NCBI GenBank assembly: GCA_963737065.1
Contig: CAVTRC010000001.1
Span: 1,920,001-1,984,000, forward strand
DNA from: Candidatus Eremiobacteria bacterium
GTDB lineage: Bacteria > Vulcanimicrobiota > Vulcanimicrobiia > Vulcanimicrobiales > Vulcanimicrobiaceae
Reading direction: 5' to 3'
Length of the DNA stretch: 64,000 nt
In this document: positions 8,974 to 14,554 of the stretch, one piece after another
Numbering within the stretch: the stretch's first letter is position 1
How the letters are laid out: every line of letters begins with the position of its first letter
Notes under the pieces: model-generated
What the model saw: the letters and a program-made list of their open reading frames with translations, nothing else
What the model was told of the DNA's origin: nothing
Databases searched by the model: none
Program-made: the position numbers and the translations under genes

Positions 8974-10141
8974 GTGATGAAGCTTTTGCGACCTTTCCTT
9001 GCGCTCGTGTTGAGCGCGGGCATTCTTGCCGCGCCCGCTTCCGGTGTGGCGGCAAACGATATTTCGCTTCAGGCGAAGCTGACGCAGATCTTGCAAAACT
9101 ACATAAAGGAGCGTGGCGCTGCCGAGCACATCGATGCGGCGTCGGTGAGCGTTACGACGCTGCACGGTGATGCGCCGACGGTCGCCGCCGTCGGTGCAAC
9201 GCCGTCGACGCTCTTTCAGATCGGCAGCAATACCAAGGCGTTTACGGCCGTGCTTGCGCTTCAGTTGGAAGCCGCCGGCAAGTTGAACATCGATGCGCCG
9301 ATCGGACGATGGCTGCCGCAATATCCAGCGTGGAAAAACATCACCATTCGGCATCTGCTCGACATGACGAGCGGCATCCCGACGTACGATAACGATCCGG
9401 CGTTCCAGCGGCGATATGGAAAGAATCCGTATAAGAACTATTCGGCCGCAGAACTCGTCGCCGCCGTCTATCCGAAGAACGGGCACCCGACGTTCATGCG
9501 CGGTTGGTACTATTCGAACACCGGATACATCCTCACGCAAATGATCCTGGAACGCATTACGGGTCAGTCGTACGGCGACTTACTGCGCACGCGCATTTTC
9601 ACGCCTTACCATCTCGCCAACATGTATTACGATCCGAACGTGCTTCCCGCGAACGTTCAACCGCGCGTCTCGCCGGGATACTTTTTCAATAACGAACCGG
9701 ACAACGCCGGATTGCAGCCGCTCTACAAGCGCGACGTGCGGAACTTGAGCTTGTCGTGGGCGCAGGCGGCGGGCGGAATCGTCGCAACGCCGGCCGCACT
9801 CGAGCGTTGGGTTCAGATCCTTTATGGTCCAACGATGTTGCCGAAAAAACAGCGCGATGAATTGATGTCGACCGTCTCGATGACGACGGGAAAGCCGGTA
9901 GCGCAGGCATCGCAGAGCGCAGCCGCGGACGTTCGGACTAGGCGTCGGCGAAATGTACAAGCCGCCGCTCGGGCGATTCATGTTTTACGAGGGCATGACG
10001 CTCGGATACCGGGTCGTCCATGTGTATGCTCCACAACACAATCTCGTCCTCACCGTTGCGCTGAACAGCCAGCCAAATCCGAATGAGGACCACGTGGGCG
10101 TGCTCATCGATCGCATCGTCAAAGTACTGCCATCGCAATGA
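8974..10141 (+). CDS. Serine hydrolase (beta-lactamase/D,D-peptidase family); frameshift near 9920
   Basis: Signal peptide, SxxK (GSNTK), LLDMTSGI, YSN; C-terminus in ORF 9953-10141. Confidence 0.85.
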
Positions 10142-10172
10142 CCAGACTGCGACACATTAGGACCAACGGGCA

Positions 10173-10201
10173 TTGACGCGTTATCCGGCGCGTGATAGGT
10201 T
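10173..10201 (+). promoter_or_regulatory. Sigma70-type promoter TTGACG-N17-TAGGTT with extended -10 TG
   Basis: TTGACG 10173-10178, TG 10193-10194, TAGGTT 10196-10201. Confidence 0.7.
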
Positions 10202-10210
10202 AACCGCGTA

Positions 10211-10285
10211 ATGTTTGTTGTGTGTTGTAGCGCATGTCTCTGTTGTTCGACGCCGCCGGCGTGGGATAGCTGTCGCATACCGTAA
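10211..10285 (+). CDS. Cysteine-rich leader peptide MFVVCCSACLCCSTPPAWDSCRIP (24 aa)
   Basis: 6 of 24 codons are Cys, all TGT; lies between promoter and terminator upstream of cysH. Confidence 0.8.
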   Translation: MFVVCCSACLCCSTPPAWDSCRIP

Positions 10286-10308
10286 CAACACAGGTCTGTA
10301 TCAGCTAT

Positions 10309-10346
10309 AGCCCCCGCCGTCAAATGACAGCGGGGGCTTTCTTTTT
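10309..10346 (+). terminator. Intrinsic terminator (attenuator) upstream of cysH
   Basis: AGCCCCCGC...GCGGGGGCT stem followed by TTCTTTTT, ending 11 nt before the cysH ATG. Confidence 0.85.
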
Positions 10347-10357
10347 ACGGGAACGAC

Positions 10358-11086
10358 ATGGGAACGACTCTCGGCGAGAAGCGAGACGCGCTCGGCGTGA
10401 TTTCACGCGCCTTTTCCGATGCGGCGCCTCAAGACATTTTACGATATGCGATCGACGCGCATCCGCGCGTTGCGCTCGCGTGCTCGTTCGGTGGACCGTC
10501 GGGGATGGTGCTGCTTCATATGGCGACGCAGCTCGAACGCGTTGTGGACGTGTACTATCTCGATACGGGATTGCTCTTTCCGCAAACCTACGCGCTCATC
10601 GATGCCGTCCGAAAGCGATATGCGATCGAGCCGCTCGCCGTGCGCCCTTCGCGGTCGGTAGAGCAACAAGCGCAATCGCACGGAGCCGCGCTCTGGCAAC
10701 GCAATCCCGACGCCTGCTGTAGCTTACGCAAAGTCGAACCGCAGCAGGCGTTTCTGTCGCGATACGATGCGTGGATTACCGGCATCCGACGCGATCAGGC
10801 GCAAACGCGTGCGGCAACGCAGCCGATCGTCTGGGACGAAAAGTTTGGTCTCGTAAAAGTGAGCCCGCTTGCGAATTGGGACGAGGGCATGGTATGGGCG
10901 TACATCCGCGCGCACGACGTGCCATACAACGACCTCTACGACTACGGCTACACGAGCATCGGATGTGCGCCGTGCACGCGCGCGATCGCTCCGCACGAGG
11001 ATCCGCGCGCGGGCCGTTGGCCGGGCAACGCCAAAGTGGAGTGCGGTCTTCACGCGCCCCTCACTGACGGGAGGCATGTCGGATGA
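10358..11086 (+). CDS. cysH: APS/PAPS reductase, 4Fe-4S (APS-type)
   Basis: SFG, LDTG, CC..RKVEP, SIGCAPCT, RAGRW, ECGLH. Confidence 0.95.
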   Translation: MGTTLGEKRDALGVISRAFSDAAPQDILRYAIDAHPRVALACSFGGPSGMVLLHMATQLERVVDVYYLDTGLLFPQTYALIDAVRKRYAIEPLAVRPSRSVEQQAQSHGAALWQRNPDACCSLRKVEPQQAFLSRYDAWITGIRRDQAQTRAATQPIVWDEKFGLVKVSPLANWDEGMVWAYIRAHDVPYNDLYDYGYTSIGCAPCTRAIAPHEDPRAGRWPGNAKVECGLHAPLTDGRHVG

Positions 11087-12804
11087 ACGAAGACCTCGTG
11101 ACGCTCGGCGCCGGTGAAGGCAGCAAAAACGAAGCGATCAAAATCGAAAGCGCGCATTTGCGCGGGACTATCGCGCAAACGATTGCTTCCGATGCGACGC
11201 ATTTCGAAGAAGTCGACGTGCAACTGCTGAAATTCCACGGAAGCTATCAACAAGAAGATCGCGACCGCCGGCGCGAGCGCAAAGAAGCCGGTGCAGAGAA
11301 GGCCTACCAATTCATGGTTCGCTCGCGCATCCCGGGCGGCGCCCTCAACGCCGAGCAATACCTCGCGCACGACGCAATTGCGCACGCGTACGCAAACGGG
11401 TCGATTCGACTGACGACCCGGCAGGGTATCCAGCTCCACGGCGTGCTGATGCACGAGCTGCGTCCGGCGATCAAGGCGATCAACGACTCGTTACTCTCAA
11501 CGCTCGCCGCGTGCGGCGATGTCAATCGAAACGTGATGGCGTGCGCAGCTCCCGCTCGCGACGCCGCGCACGTCGCCGTCTTGGAGTACGCGCGCCGCAT
11601 CGCGATGCATCTCGCTCCGCGCACGCGCGCATATCATGAAATCTGGCTCGAGGGCGAGAAGCTCGAGCTGCAGCACGGTGCCGTCGCAGAGGAGCCGATT
11701 TACGGCGATACGTACTTGCCGCGGAAATTCAAGATCGGCGTCACGATGCCGGACGATAACTGTATCGACGTGTATACGCAAGATATCGGGCTCGTCGCTG
11801 AATTCGACGCACGGGACGGCGTGGCGGGATTCACGGTTCTGATCGGCGGCGGCATGGGTTCCACGCACGGAAAGAGCGAGACATTTCCCCGGCTCGCGAC
11901 GCCGCTCTGCTTTATTCCCGCGGAAGACGCCATAGAAGTCGCCGAAACGATCGTGACGATTCACCGGGACTACGGCGATCGCAAGAATCGACGGCACGCG
12001 CGCATGAAATACGTCGTCGAAGAACGCGGCATCGAATGGTTCCGCGAGCAACTCGAACAGCGCTTGGGGCGGCGCGTTGCCGATCCGCACGATGTGCGCT
12101 TTAGCGCGGCACACGATCATCTCGGATGGCAGCGCCAGCTCGATGCTTCGTGGTCGCTCGGGCTCTTCATCGAAAACGGGCGCATCGTCGACAGCGCCCG
12201 GAGCATGCTGCGCACCGCACTGCGGGAGGTCGTTACCATGCTGCGCCCCGGGTTGCGCATTACGCCCCAGCAGAACCTTATCCTGACCGGCATCCCGGCC
12301 AAGGCGCGCAGACACGTCGAGGCCATGCTCAGACATTACGGCGTTGTTGCCGATGCCGAGGACGTGGGATTGCGACGCGGAGCCATGGCGTGTCCGGCAC
12401 TTCCGACGTGCGGGCTCGCCGTCGCGGAGGCCGAACGCGCGTTGCCGGCGCTCGTGGACCGCGTGGAACGCGACTTGACCGCGCTCGGGCTCGCGGAGGA
12501 ACCGGTCAGCATTCGGATGACCGGTTGCCCGAACGGTTGCGCGCGCCCGCGCATGGGCGACATCGGCATCGTCGGGCGCTCTCTCGGGCTCTACGACATC
12601 TTCCTCGGCGGCGATGCGCCGAACACGCGACTGAATGAACTCTACGCGCAGGGCGTCGCATCCGATGCTATCGTCTCCGTGCTACATGACGCGTTTGAGT
12701 TGTGGAAGCACGAACGCCTACCCGGAGAACGATTCGGCGATTTCGCGCACCGTTTTGGCGTGGGGCGGCTGCGCGAAGCGGCGAAGGCATTACGATCTGC
12801 GTGA
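11083..12804 (+). CDS. cysI: Siroheme sulfite reductase hemoprotein (CysI/Sir)
   Basis: KFHGSYQQ, LTTRQ, ACGDVNRN, YLPRKFK, CPALPTC, TGCPNGC. Confidence 0.93.
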   Translation: MNEDLVTLGAGEGSKNEAIKIESAHLRGTIAQTIASDATHFEEVDVQLLKFHGSYQQEDRDRRRERKEAGAEKAYQFMVRSRIPGGALNAEQYLAHDAIAHAYANGSIRLTTRQGIQLHGVLMHELRPAIKAINDSLLSTLAACGDVNRNVMACAAPARDAAHVAVLEYARRIAMHLAPRTRAYHEIWLEGEKLELQHGAVAEEPIYGDTYLPRKFKIGVTMPDDNCIDVYTQDIGLVAEFDARDGVAGFTVLIGGGMGSTHGKSETFPRLATPLCFIPAEDAIEVAETIVTIHRDYGDRKNRRHARMKYVVEERGIEWFREQLEQRLGRRVADPHDVRFSAAHDHLGWQRQLDASWSLGLFIENGRIVDSARSMLRTALREVVTMLRPGLRITPQQNLILTGIPAKARRHVEAMLRHYGVVADAEDVGLRRGAMACPALPTCGLAVAEAERALPALVDRVERDLTALGLAEEPVSIRMTGCPNGCARPRMGDIGIVGRSLGLYDIFLGGDAPNTRLNELYAQGVASDAIVSVLHDAFELWKHERLPGERFGDFAHRFGVGRLREAAKALRSA

Positions 12805-13562
12805 CTGCCGAACTCGTCGTCATCGGCTTTTTTGTCGGAGTGCTCGTCGGGCTAACCGGCGTGGGCGGCGGCAGCATCATGACGCCCGTTCTCGTCGTGC
12901 TAGGAGTCAATCCACTCGTGGCGGTCGGAACCGACTTGCTCTATAGCGTTCCGACGAAACTCTACGGCGCGTACCTTCATGGACGCCAAGGCACGATCGA
13001 CCGGCGGATCGTTTTGCTGCTGCTCTGCGGCGGCGTCCCGGCTGCCATCGCCGGCACCGCGTTCGTTTTGTGGTCGCGCCAGCATGTCGACATCGCAATG
13101 ATCGAATCATGGACGCGACGCGCGATCGGCGCGTCTCTGATGCTTGCGGCAGCGCTAATGCTTGCGCGTCCGCTGATCGCACGCGGTTTGCCGCCGCCAC
13201 CGCCGGCCGCGATACCGGGGTGGCGGATCGCAGCGATCGGCGCTGCCGTCGGTTTTATCGTCACGCTGACGTCGATCGGCAGCGGATCGCTGACGCTCCC
13301 GCTGCTCTCGATGGCCCTGCCGTCGATCGGACTCGCGCGCCTCGTCGGTTCGGACATTGCGTTCGCGGCTCTGCTTATTCCGACGGCGGCCGTCGGACGC
13401 TGGTCGATGGGCGACGTGAACCTCGGCATCGCGATCGCGCTGCTTACCGGATCGCTGCCCGGCATTTTCGTCGGAACGAAATTGTGCGCACGCTTGCAGA
13501 CCCGCTGGCTGCGTCCCGCCGTTGCGCTCACCCTTGTTTTCGTCGGCTCACGTCTAATCTAG
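12801..13562 (+). CDS. TauE/SafE sulfite exporter family membrane protein
   Basis: GLTGVGGGSIMTP, AVGTDL, TSIGSGS; GTG overlaps the upstream stop (GTGA). Confidence 0.9.
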   Translation: MTAELVVIGFFVGVLVGLTGVGGGSIMTPVLVVLGVNPLVAVGTDLLYSVPTKLYGAYLHGRQGTIDRRIVLLLLCGGVPAAIAGTAFVLWSRQHVDIAMIESWTRRAIGASLMLAAALMLARPLIARGLPPPPPAAIPGWRIAAIGAAVGFIVTLTSIGSGSLTLPLLSMALPSIGLARLVGSDIAFAALLIPTAAVGRWSMGDVNLGIAIALLTGSLPGIFVGTKLCARLQTRWLRPAVALTLVFVGSRLI

Positions 13563-13776: not shown

Positions 13777-14060
13777 ATGGTGCTCGGACCCCAGCGTAAA
13801 ACAGGAGAGATTTAATGCTCGCCTGTCTGAAGAACAGAAAGCAGATACTTCAACGAGCGGCTGACCTTCAGGGCATGTCTTTGTCGGATTTTGTCCTAAG
13901 CTCGGCGCATGATGAAGCACTTCGGATTATCGAAGCGCATGAAATTATACGCCTTTCTAAGCGCGACAGCGAGGCGTTTTTGCAGGCTCTTGAATCCCCG
14001 CCTGCTGCAAGTAGACATGTGATCGAGCGATTTGCTAAGGCGGGGAAGCAACGCGCGTAA
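13777..14060 (+). CDS. DUF1778 (TacA/AtaR-like) RHH antitoxin; N-terminus frameshifted in A-runs
   Basis: KQERFNARLSEEQK in one frame continues as QILQRAADLQGMSLSDFVLSSA...IRLSKRDSEAFLQALESPP. Confidence 0.82.
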
Positions 14061-14554
14061 GTGATCGAAGGCATAGCCTTTCAGCCGCTCGCGAAGTATC
14101 ACGACCGAGCGGCTTTTACTCGTTCCGGACAAGAGTGCGCGATTCTTCAGGAATATTTGAGGAACGATGCGCGCGGGCCCCGGGAACACCGAAAACACGT
14201 AACCGCTCTGCATGTGATGGTGCAAGAATCGGCACCATCGCTTATTTGTGCCTACTTTACGCTCTCTAGCGCGAGTCTAAGAATTGAAGAATTGCGCAAA
14301 AATATTGTGAAGGGGTTGCCGACGTATCGCATGATGCCGGCTTTAAAACTCGGGCGCATGGCTGTTGACGATCGTTTTCGTGCGCACGACCTTGGCACCG
14401 TACTTATACAGGAGGCGTTCAAGATCGCGGTTCGATTAAAGGATGCCGTTGGCTTTGTTGCTATGCTCGCGGACGCGAAGACTGACAACCTAGTCAACTA
14501 CTATCGCTTTTCATCATGCAGCCCACGATGGAGCAGATACTAAGCGCGTCGTAA
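14061..14554 (+). pseudogene. GNAT acetyltransferase toxin (TacT/AtaT-like), C-terminus disrupted
   Basis: HDRAAF, PALKLGRMAVDDRF..DLG, ADAK..YY; the expected GF motif is missing and a plausible terminus LFIMQPTMEQILSAS* is in another frame. Confidence 0.7.

Follow-up and report, generated by a model that had tools for sequence, protein, structure and literature searches.

A probable cysteine-sensing transcription attenuator ahead of the sulfate-reduction operon in a family of Candidatus Eremiobacteria

The window, by which we mean the whole 64,000-nt stretch of DNA analyzed here (positions 1,920,001 to 1,984,000 of contig CAVTRC010000001.1 in assembly GCA_963737065.1, from a Candidatus Eremiobacteria bacterium of the family Vulcanimicrobiaceae), carries a cysH-sir-tauE operon preceded by a promoter, a short Cys-rich open reading frame (ORF), and an intrinsic terminator, the RNA between promoter and operon being able to adopt several alternative structures. 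The features, in window coordinates, are as follows.

10173..10178, + strand: -35 box TTGACG, read from the sequence
10193..10201, + strand: extended -10 box TGaTAGGTT (TG at 10193-10194, TAGGTT at 10196-10201)
10211..10285, + strand: leader ORF of 24 codons plus stop, MFVVCCSACLCCSTPPAWDSCRIP, with counterparts at 42 of 69 family loci
10221..10292, + strand: protector (anti-antiterminator, 1:2) domain, -33.9 kcal/mol, present in the MFE fold
10223..10246, + strand: putative sensor, a cluster of five UGU Cys codons (codons 5, 6, 9, 11, and 12), read from the sequence
10257..10272, + strand: antiterminator 5′ strand (segment 2), sequence CGGCG.GGGAUAGCUG
10302..10319, + strand: antiterminator 3′ strand (segment 3), CAGCUAU..CCC.CGCCG, of which 10309-10319 is also the terminator 5′ arm
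10309..10338, + strand: intrinsic terminator hairpin (3:4), -22.6 to -24 kcal/mol
10338..10346, + strand: U-tract UUUCUUUUU, read from the sequence
10358..11086, + strand: cysH (PAPS/APS reductase family), the first gene of the putatively regulated operon (Pfam PF01507 PAPS_reduct, 7.2e-51)
11083..12804, + strand: sulfite reductase gene, sir (Pfam NIR_SIR, 4.6e-55, also NIR_SIR_ferr)
12702..13562, + strand: gene for a TauE/SafE-type membrane protein (Pfam PF01925, 1.4e-42)

A first-pass annotation of this DNA had described several of these elements from the letters alone, and its coordinates and sequences are exact for the promoter (TTGACG and TAGGTT, separated by 17 nt), for the ORF at 10211-10285 with its six Cys codons, all TGT (codons 5, 6, 9, 11, 12, and 21, of which five fall within codons 5 to 12 and form CC pairs at 5-6 and 11-12), and for the terminator (hairpin 10309-10338, U-tract to 10346) that ends 11 nt ahead of the cysH ATG at 10358; the Pfam matches likewise uphold its naming of the downstream genes. 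The real start of tauE is probably downstream of 12702, since the Pfam match begins only at residue 38. The leader ATG lies 9 nt past the -10 box and has no Shine-Dalgarno sequence. Because a Shine-Dalgarno sequence is lacking and start codons of this kind of leader fall 5 to 10 nt past an extended -10 box, the mRNA made from the leader promoter is predicted to be leaderless or nearly so; for the window, where the distance is 9 nt, a leader of 2 to 3 nt and a true 5′ AUG are equally likely.

A simple consensus scan of the window missed both the promoter and the terminator (TAGGTT matches TATAAT at 3 of 6 positions, and the terminator stem contains an internal mismatch). A search of Rfam over positions 9000-11500 returned, as its best matches, unrelated families at E values of 0.11 or worse, far under the gathering score. 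The gene upstream of the leader belongs to the beta-lactamase family (Pfam). We rejected the reading of the hairpin as the terminator of that gene, since a promoter intervenes and the element recurs beside other upstream neighbors. Just past the sulfate-reduction operon, at 13815-14543, lie two adjacent ORFs, one of 81 aa that matches a TacA1-like antitoxin family (Pfam, 6.7e-20) and, immediately after it, one of 160 aa for which Pfam gave no match; the two could be a toxin-antitoxin pair.

The codon composition of the leader is far from background, given that in the 1453 long ORFs of the source genome (3.08 Mb, 60.5% GC) 20% of Cys codons are TGT and 1.15% of all codons are Cys, whereas the leader has six TGT among 24 codons. 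The genome has one tRNA-Cys only, with anticodon GCA. The preference for UGU, remarked on in the first-pass annotation for the window, extends over the family: among the 39 distinct leader peptides from published family genomes, Cys accounts for 172 of 899 residues (19.1%), and 127 of these 172 codons (74%) are UGU. The dipeptide CC occurs in 38 of the 39 peptides and CCC in 16, and there is little common sequence outside the Cys cluster, the 3′ parts of the peptides tracking RNA helices. In-frame Cys codons are kept among leaders while UGU and UGC interchange and the flanking codons vary. One relative (G081, locus L073:225-370) has a leader with seven Cys codons in a row, MTIRLSCLLCCCCCCCPRAGWLGRALG. 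The choice of the rarer, wobble-read UGU would, we infer, sharpen a Cys sensor; the CUA codons of leuL are a parallel case of preference for a rare synonymous codon in an attenuator. A loose scan of the genome for any ORF with at least four Cys in 10 codons returned 129 matches, mostly intragenic, and was useless without context filters.

The whole leader RNA of the window folds at -64 kcal/mol (z = -4.67; none of 200 shuffles as low), and three alternative elements can be discerned within it: a protector, an antiterminator, and the terminator. The protector pairs the Cys-codon region with the distal leader through an outer helix (10221-10228 with 10285-10292) and an inner hairpin (10242-10254 with 10258-10270, including ACGCC at 10250-10254 with GGCGU at 10258-10262). 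The antiterminator hairpin, spanning 10257-10319, has an energy of -30.1 kcal/mol. Over the stretches named in the first-pass annotation, its duplex amounts to -19.8 kcal/mol; lengthened by three pairs, it reaches -26.8 kcal/mol, a value equaled by none of 200 dinucleotide shuffles (z = -4.18). The lower half of the antiterminator occupies 10311-10319, within the terminator 5′ arm, and its upper half (AUAGCUG with CAGCUAU) lies outside the terminator. The pairing that had been claimed is thus present in the window and, by its overlap with the terminator 5′ arm, mutually exclusive with the terminator. The two-structure model proposed with it stands as far as this switch goes but omits the anti-antiterminator at 10221-10292, which, on the present reading, is the element that a stalled ribosome would actually disrupt.

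Folding with simulated ribosome masking, the check proposed with the original claim, bears this model out in part. For RNA ending before the terminator 3′ arm, a ribosome placed on any of codons 5 to 12 makes the antiterminator the MFE structure. A ribosome placed at the stop codon leaves the ACGCC/GGCGU hairpin and the terminator to form. If a ribosome stalls on codon 12 and its 3′ edge is assumed to lie 12 nt past the A site, segment 2 begins just beyond that edge. Two other measures give no such separation: at equilibrium the terminator wins under every mask in the window (with a probability of at least 0.9 for most leaders and masks), and in the window itself the masked state preceding the 3′ arm scores 0.61 at the Cys codons against 0.67 at the stop codon. 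Because the terminator always wins at full equilibrium, the switch must be kinetic, as in trp; for refolding of the antiterminator into the terminator, findpath gives an estimated barrier of 9.5 kcal/mol.

The family comparison covered 69 cysH loci, with extra upstream DNA fetched for 18 of them; leaving out the unpublished genomes G073 and G181 gives 67 loci. The gene cysH is itself patchy, being present in 72 of 301 family genomes and, within the genus of the window, in only 2 of the 6 genomes sampled, so that many members are probably unable to reduce sulfate by the cysH route. A Cys-rich ORF of 19 to 28 codons followed by an intrinsic terminator is found at 42 of the 69 loci (40 of the 67 published, in 21 genera). 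In the 40 leaders from published genomes, the start codon lies 5 to 10 nt past the -10 box (mostly 7 or 8), the -10 box has the TG extension in 37, and the gap from stop codon to terminator is 21 to 40 nt; related leaders have TTGACn 17 to 18 nt upstream of the -10 box. Loci without a firm leader number 25 of the 69: two are partial (L083, with no terminator by the rule applied, and L093, with an ORF of 12 codons), eight were negative after upstream extension, three are cut by contig ends, and 12 were not extended. A relaxed detector identified such elements in 31 of 65 upstream regions on the sense strand, against 2 of 65 on the antisense strand.

The position of the leader is tied to the start of the operon and not to cysH itself: the leader heads cysH-sir-tauE, sir-cysH (the order in one genus), tauE-cysH (the order in another), and, in another family of the same phylum, sir-cobA-cysH, where one further leader was found. 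At cysH loci of other phyla, no such element was detected within 1.5 kb (0 of 17). The cysH matches among named genomes are distant (a Bacillota MAG at 50%, Poribacteria at 39%, and others), and of the 400 other genomes of the phylum that were sampled, 296 belong to the family (f1). The source genome (completeness 95%) contains LpxC and gave no match to the WhiB family, which marks the host as an LPS-type diderm and not an actinobacterium.

The first-pass annotation had staked its reading on the conservation of Cys codons and helices in orthologous leaders, and most of what it predicted holds: peptide and RNA sequences diverge over 21 genera, while the Cys clusters, promoter-to-ATG spacing, terminator, and protector hairpin persist. 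In an RNAalifold consensus of 11 leaders from one subgroup, two helices emerge, the protector hairpin and the terminator, with compensatory double changes at 8 of 20 pairs. The consensus protector hairpin, which begins immediately 3′ of the last Cys codon, ties up a CGGCG segment. In leaders of this subgroup, CGGCG is present in each of segments 1, 2, and 4, and the sole CGCCG, in segment 3, is able to pair with any of the three; the stop codon comes directly after the second CGGCG, which is complementary to the CGCCG of the terminator 5′ arm.

For the antiterminator, the alignments gave no sign of covariation. RNAalifold on a truncated alignment of the subgroup returned an invariant CGGCG/CGCCG core, a second truncated subgroup alignment was conserved with at most single changes in a pair and no double changes, and a comparison of own with foreign pairings of the antiterminator strand and terminator arm in 25 representative leaders was not significant (permutation p of 0.2). 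An antiterminator duplex is found in every leader family-wide, but, against shuffles, the best duplex of the 40 leaders has a mean z of only -1.07 (below -2 in 8 of 40, above 0 in 5 of 40). Its 5′ strand starts a median of 18 nt past the last Cys codon of the cluster. The geometry agrees with the model in most leaders, although these are related to each other and the geometry and masking counts therefore lack independence. In 27 of the 40, the best 5′ strand stays exposed when the ribosome sits on the last Cys codon of the cluster; in 35, no less than 60% of that strand is hidden by a ribosome at the stop codon; all 40 show greater coverage at the stop codon than at the Cys codon; and in 36, simulated masking sequesters the terminator 5′ arm more at Cys codons than at the stop.

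The same design recurs elsewhere in the source genome. A composite scan of its 3.08 Mb (promoter, start codon 5 to 9 nt past the -10 box, ORF of at most 45 codons, terminator, then a long ORF) yielded four matches, the window leader included, and five in a looser variant; three of the matches are leaders with codon runs that fit the downstream pathway, namely, Cys, Met/Cys, and Trp. The Met/Cys leader, outside the window at G000:C1:438181-438264 (locus L050:282-365), is MFTDVAMMCPMCCMQMRAARAVVERTV, with six Met including the start and four Cys (it contains MMCPMCCMQM) and with a promoter of the window's type and a terminator. It precedes an 816-aa fusion of homoserine dehydrogenase with a Cys-Met-metabolism PLP enzyme and then a metX-like alpha/beta hydrolase, an arrangement of the hom-metY-metX type, and Met/Cys leaders with terminators lie ahead of hom at 23 of 30 family loci (22 of 29 once the unpublished G050 is set aside), making it a candidate methionine/cysteine-sensing attenuator. 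The third leader, also predicted to be leaderless and also outside the window, at G000:C2:217345-217437 (locus L051:246-338), is MTTMKFVAWWWPLTERISGEACVPLSSSRK, with three consecutive Trp codons; it has a promoter TTGACA-N17-TGnTACGCT and a terminator, and downstream of it is a gene for DAHP synthase (Pfam, 3e-69), which makes the leader a candidate for Trp-sensing attenuation of the common aromatic pathway. Given that the sister leaders match their operons and that the Met/Cys leader recurs, leaderless leader-peptide attenuation appears to be a general device of the lineage.

We read the sequence elements, energies, mutual exclusivity, and conservation described above, with good confidence, as a ribosome-mediated, cysteine-sensing transcription attenuator of the cysH-sir-tauE operon, an interpretation first offered from the window alone and now supported mainly by the family comparison. 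The transcription start, translation of the leader, stalling, and regulatory outcome are deduced from the sequence; in favor of translation are the constant distance between promoter and ATG and the retention of Cys codons in frame. The cycle would run as follows. Transcription would begin at or just before ATG 10211, yielding an mRNA with no leader or one of 1 to 3 nt, and a 70S ribosome would translate the 24 codons. With Cys-tRNA plentiful, the ribosome would reach the stop codon and cover part of segment 2 (10257-10272), the ACGCC/GGCGU hairpin would re-form behind it, and the free segment 3 would pair with segment 4, producing the terminator and a stop at the U-tract 11 nt before cysH. 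With no ribosome at all, the protector at 10221-10292 would sequester segment 2, leading to termination as well. With Cys-tRNA scarce, a ribosome stalled on the UGU cluster (codons 5 to 12) would cover the 5′ half of the protector and leave segment 2 free to pair with segment 3 once the latter is made, ahead of the terminator 3′ arm, whereupon RNA polymerase would read through into cysH. The sulfate-reduction genes would, most likely, be switched on under cysteine shortage. A variant in which the ribosome at the stop codon directly occludes the terminator was rejected because of the 21- to 40-nt gap between stop codon and terminator.

Leaderless Cys ORFs need not act on transcription. The combination of promoter, leaderless Cys ORF, and Cys-pathway operon is common to the window and to mycobacteria, whose polycysteine leaderless sORFs, as the available text of one study has it, act by translational attenuation (bioRxiv 10.1101/834739), and by analogy a stalled ribosome could unmask the cysH ribosome-binding site, the hairpin then being a stabilizing or processing element and not a regulated terminator. 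Against it, all 42 leaders have, between ORF and operon, a GC-rich hairpin (median, -23 kcal/mol among the 40 published) and a U-tract directly after it. Moreover, the MFE fold of the window has no pairing within the 11 nt from the U-tract to the cysH ATG, such that nothing sequesters the cysH start region, and we regard translational control of this type as unlikely.

It is also conceivable that the ORF, which is conserved as an ORF, makes a peptide with a role of its own, be it metal or redox binding or action in trans in the manner of peTrpL (leader peptides with trans functions are known, according to the accessible portion of PMC7298713), with the terminator serving as a constitutive partial stop. 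The 39 distinct peptides share little but the Cys cluster, their 3′ parts follow RNA helices, what the leader accompanies is the operon's 5′ end, and the Met/Cys or Trp runs of the sister leaders fit their own operons; we hold a peptide function of this sort to be very improbable. The ORF could, alternatively, be incidental to a riboswitch or to a terminator controlled by a protein or sRNA, given that terminator/antiterminator pairs also serve as the expression platform of riboswitches and that translation of the leader is only predicted. No Rfam family matches the leader, in-frame Cys codons are kept despite UGU/UGC swaps and variable flanks, the start codon stands at a fixed distance from the -10 box, and the antisense control gave only 2 of 65, leaving an incidental ORF with hardly any probability.

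Control of cysteine biosynthesis is usually credited to CysB, CymR, or T-boxes or, in mycobacteria, to translational attenuation, and the phylum to which the window belongs, one of little-studied soil bacteria, is largely uncultured and known almost only from metagenomes. We are evenly divided over a broader reading of the attenuator and its sister leaders, by which the phylum would rely on a small "ribulon" of leaderless attenuators and not on dedicated transcription factors: a Cys sensor for sulfate reduction, a Met/Cys sensor for hom-metY-metX, and a Trp sensor for DAHP synthase, with the Cys sensor tuned by selection for the UGU that is wobble-read by the single tRNA-Cys(GCA) and built from one CGCCG and three CGGCG. 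If this reading is true, it would imply efficient leaderless initiation in the phylum. With the attenuator of the window by itself, cysteine would join the short list of amino acids sensed by classical terminator/antiterminator attenuators, and the mechanism would be seen to work from leaderless mRNAs in a phylum of the Gram-negative type. The signature is searchable (extended -10 box, ATG within 10 nt, Cys run, CGGCG/CGCCG switch, and terminator) and could aid the annotation of operon starts and sulfur regulons in such genomes, and the family-wide preference for UGU could serve to test whether codon choice tunes a sensor.

Among described systems, the mycobacterial "Cys ribulon" resembles the present leaders in that leaderless Cys-rich sORFs head cysteine operons at several loci and ribosome pausing reads Cys-tRNA; as far as the available text goes, the locus tested there unmasks a Shine-Dalgarno sequence, acts on translation, and has no intrinsic terminator (bioRxiv 10.1101/834739). 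The window, too, has an sORF with at least two consecutive Cys codons at the head of a cysteine operon, the leaderless status of which is predicted, but it adds a strong terminator and a competing helix, and its host is an LPS-type diderm without WhiB. The device in the window thus most likely differs from the mycobacterial Cys sORFs in acting via an intrinsic terminator. In the sections available, Canestrari et al. (2020) leave open a transcriptional action at other loci (bioRxiv 10.1101/834739), and a 2026 paper, likewise available in part, still treats the mycobacterial Cys sORFs as a case of translation attenuation (PMC13236596). By comparative genomics, Seliverstov et al. (2005) found, in the part of their account at hand, that cys operons in Mycobacterium, P. 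acnes, and B. longum are headed by Cys leader peptides (PMC1262725). These share with the present family runs of Cys codons in short ORFs upstream of cys operons but are described there, within the same part, as without conserved terminator hairpins and as possibly employing Rho, whereas the terminator is the most conserved element of the leaders studied here.

The closest precedent for the leaderless design comes from Deinococcus deserti, for which de Groot et al. (2014) predicted transcription attenuation by 14 leaderless leader peptides, among them a Trp leader (WWW) and a Cys leader (MTALCCPSTR) before cysS (PMC4007540, Table S9; portions available). That Cys leader has 10 aa and two Cys codons, precedes a tRNA synthetase gene, and belongs to another phylum; in the portions available, none of the leaders stands ahead of sulfate assimilation, and no structures or conservation are given for the Cys leader (PMC4007540). 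A literature search for a Cys leader with an intrinsic terminator, to which most subscription journals were out of reach, found none, in agreement with the view expressed in the first-pass annotation and qualified by the predicted D. deserti cysS leader, as its partly available source presents it (PMC4007540).

The enteric attenuators (trpL, hisL, leuL, thrL, pheL, and the ilv leaders) are the systems with which the window shares its logic: a short ORF with clustered codons for the end product, 1:2 protector, 2:3 antiterminator, and 3:4 terminator pairings with the regulatory codons in segment 1, a stop codon set so that the terminating ribosome covers segment 2, and a favored rare synonymous codon, here UGU. 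The window differs from them in sensing, as we propose, cysteine and controlling sulfate reduction in a different, largely uncultured phylum, in having no Shine-Dalgarno sequence and a start codon 5 to 10 nt past an extended -10 box, and in belonging to no Rfam family. Most likely, then, the device works like trpL and hisL and sets itself apart by its amino acid, its leaderless start, and its lineage.
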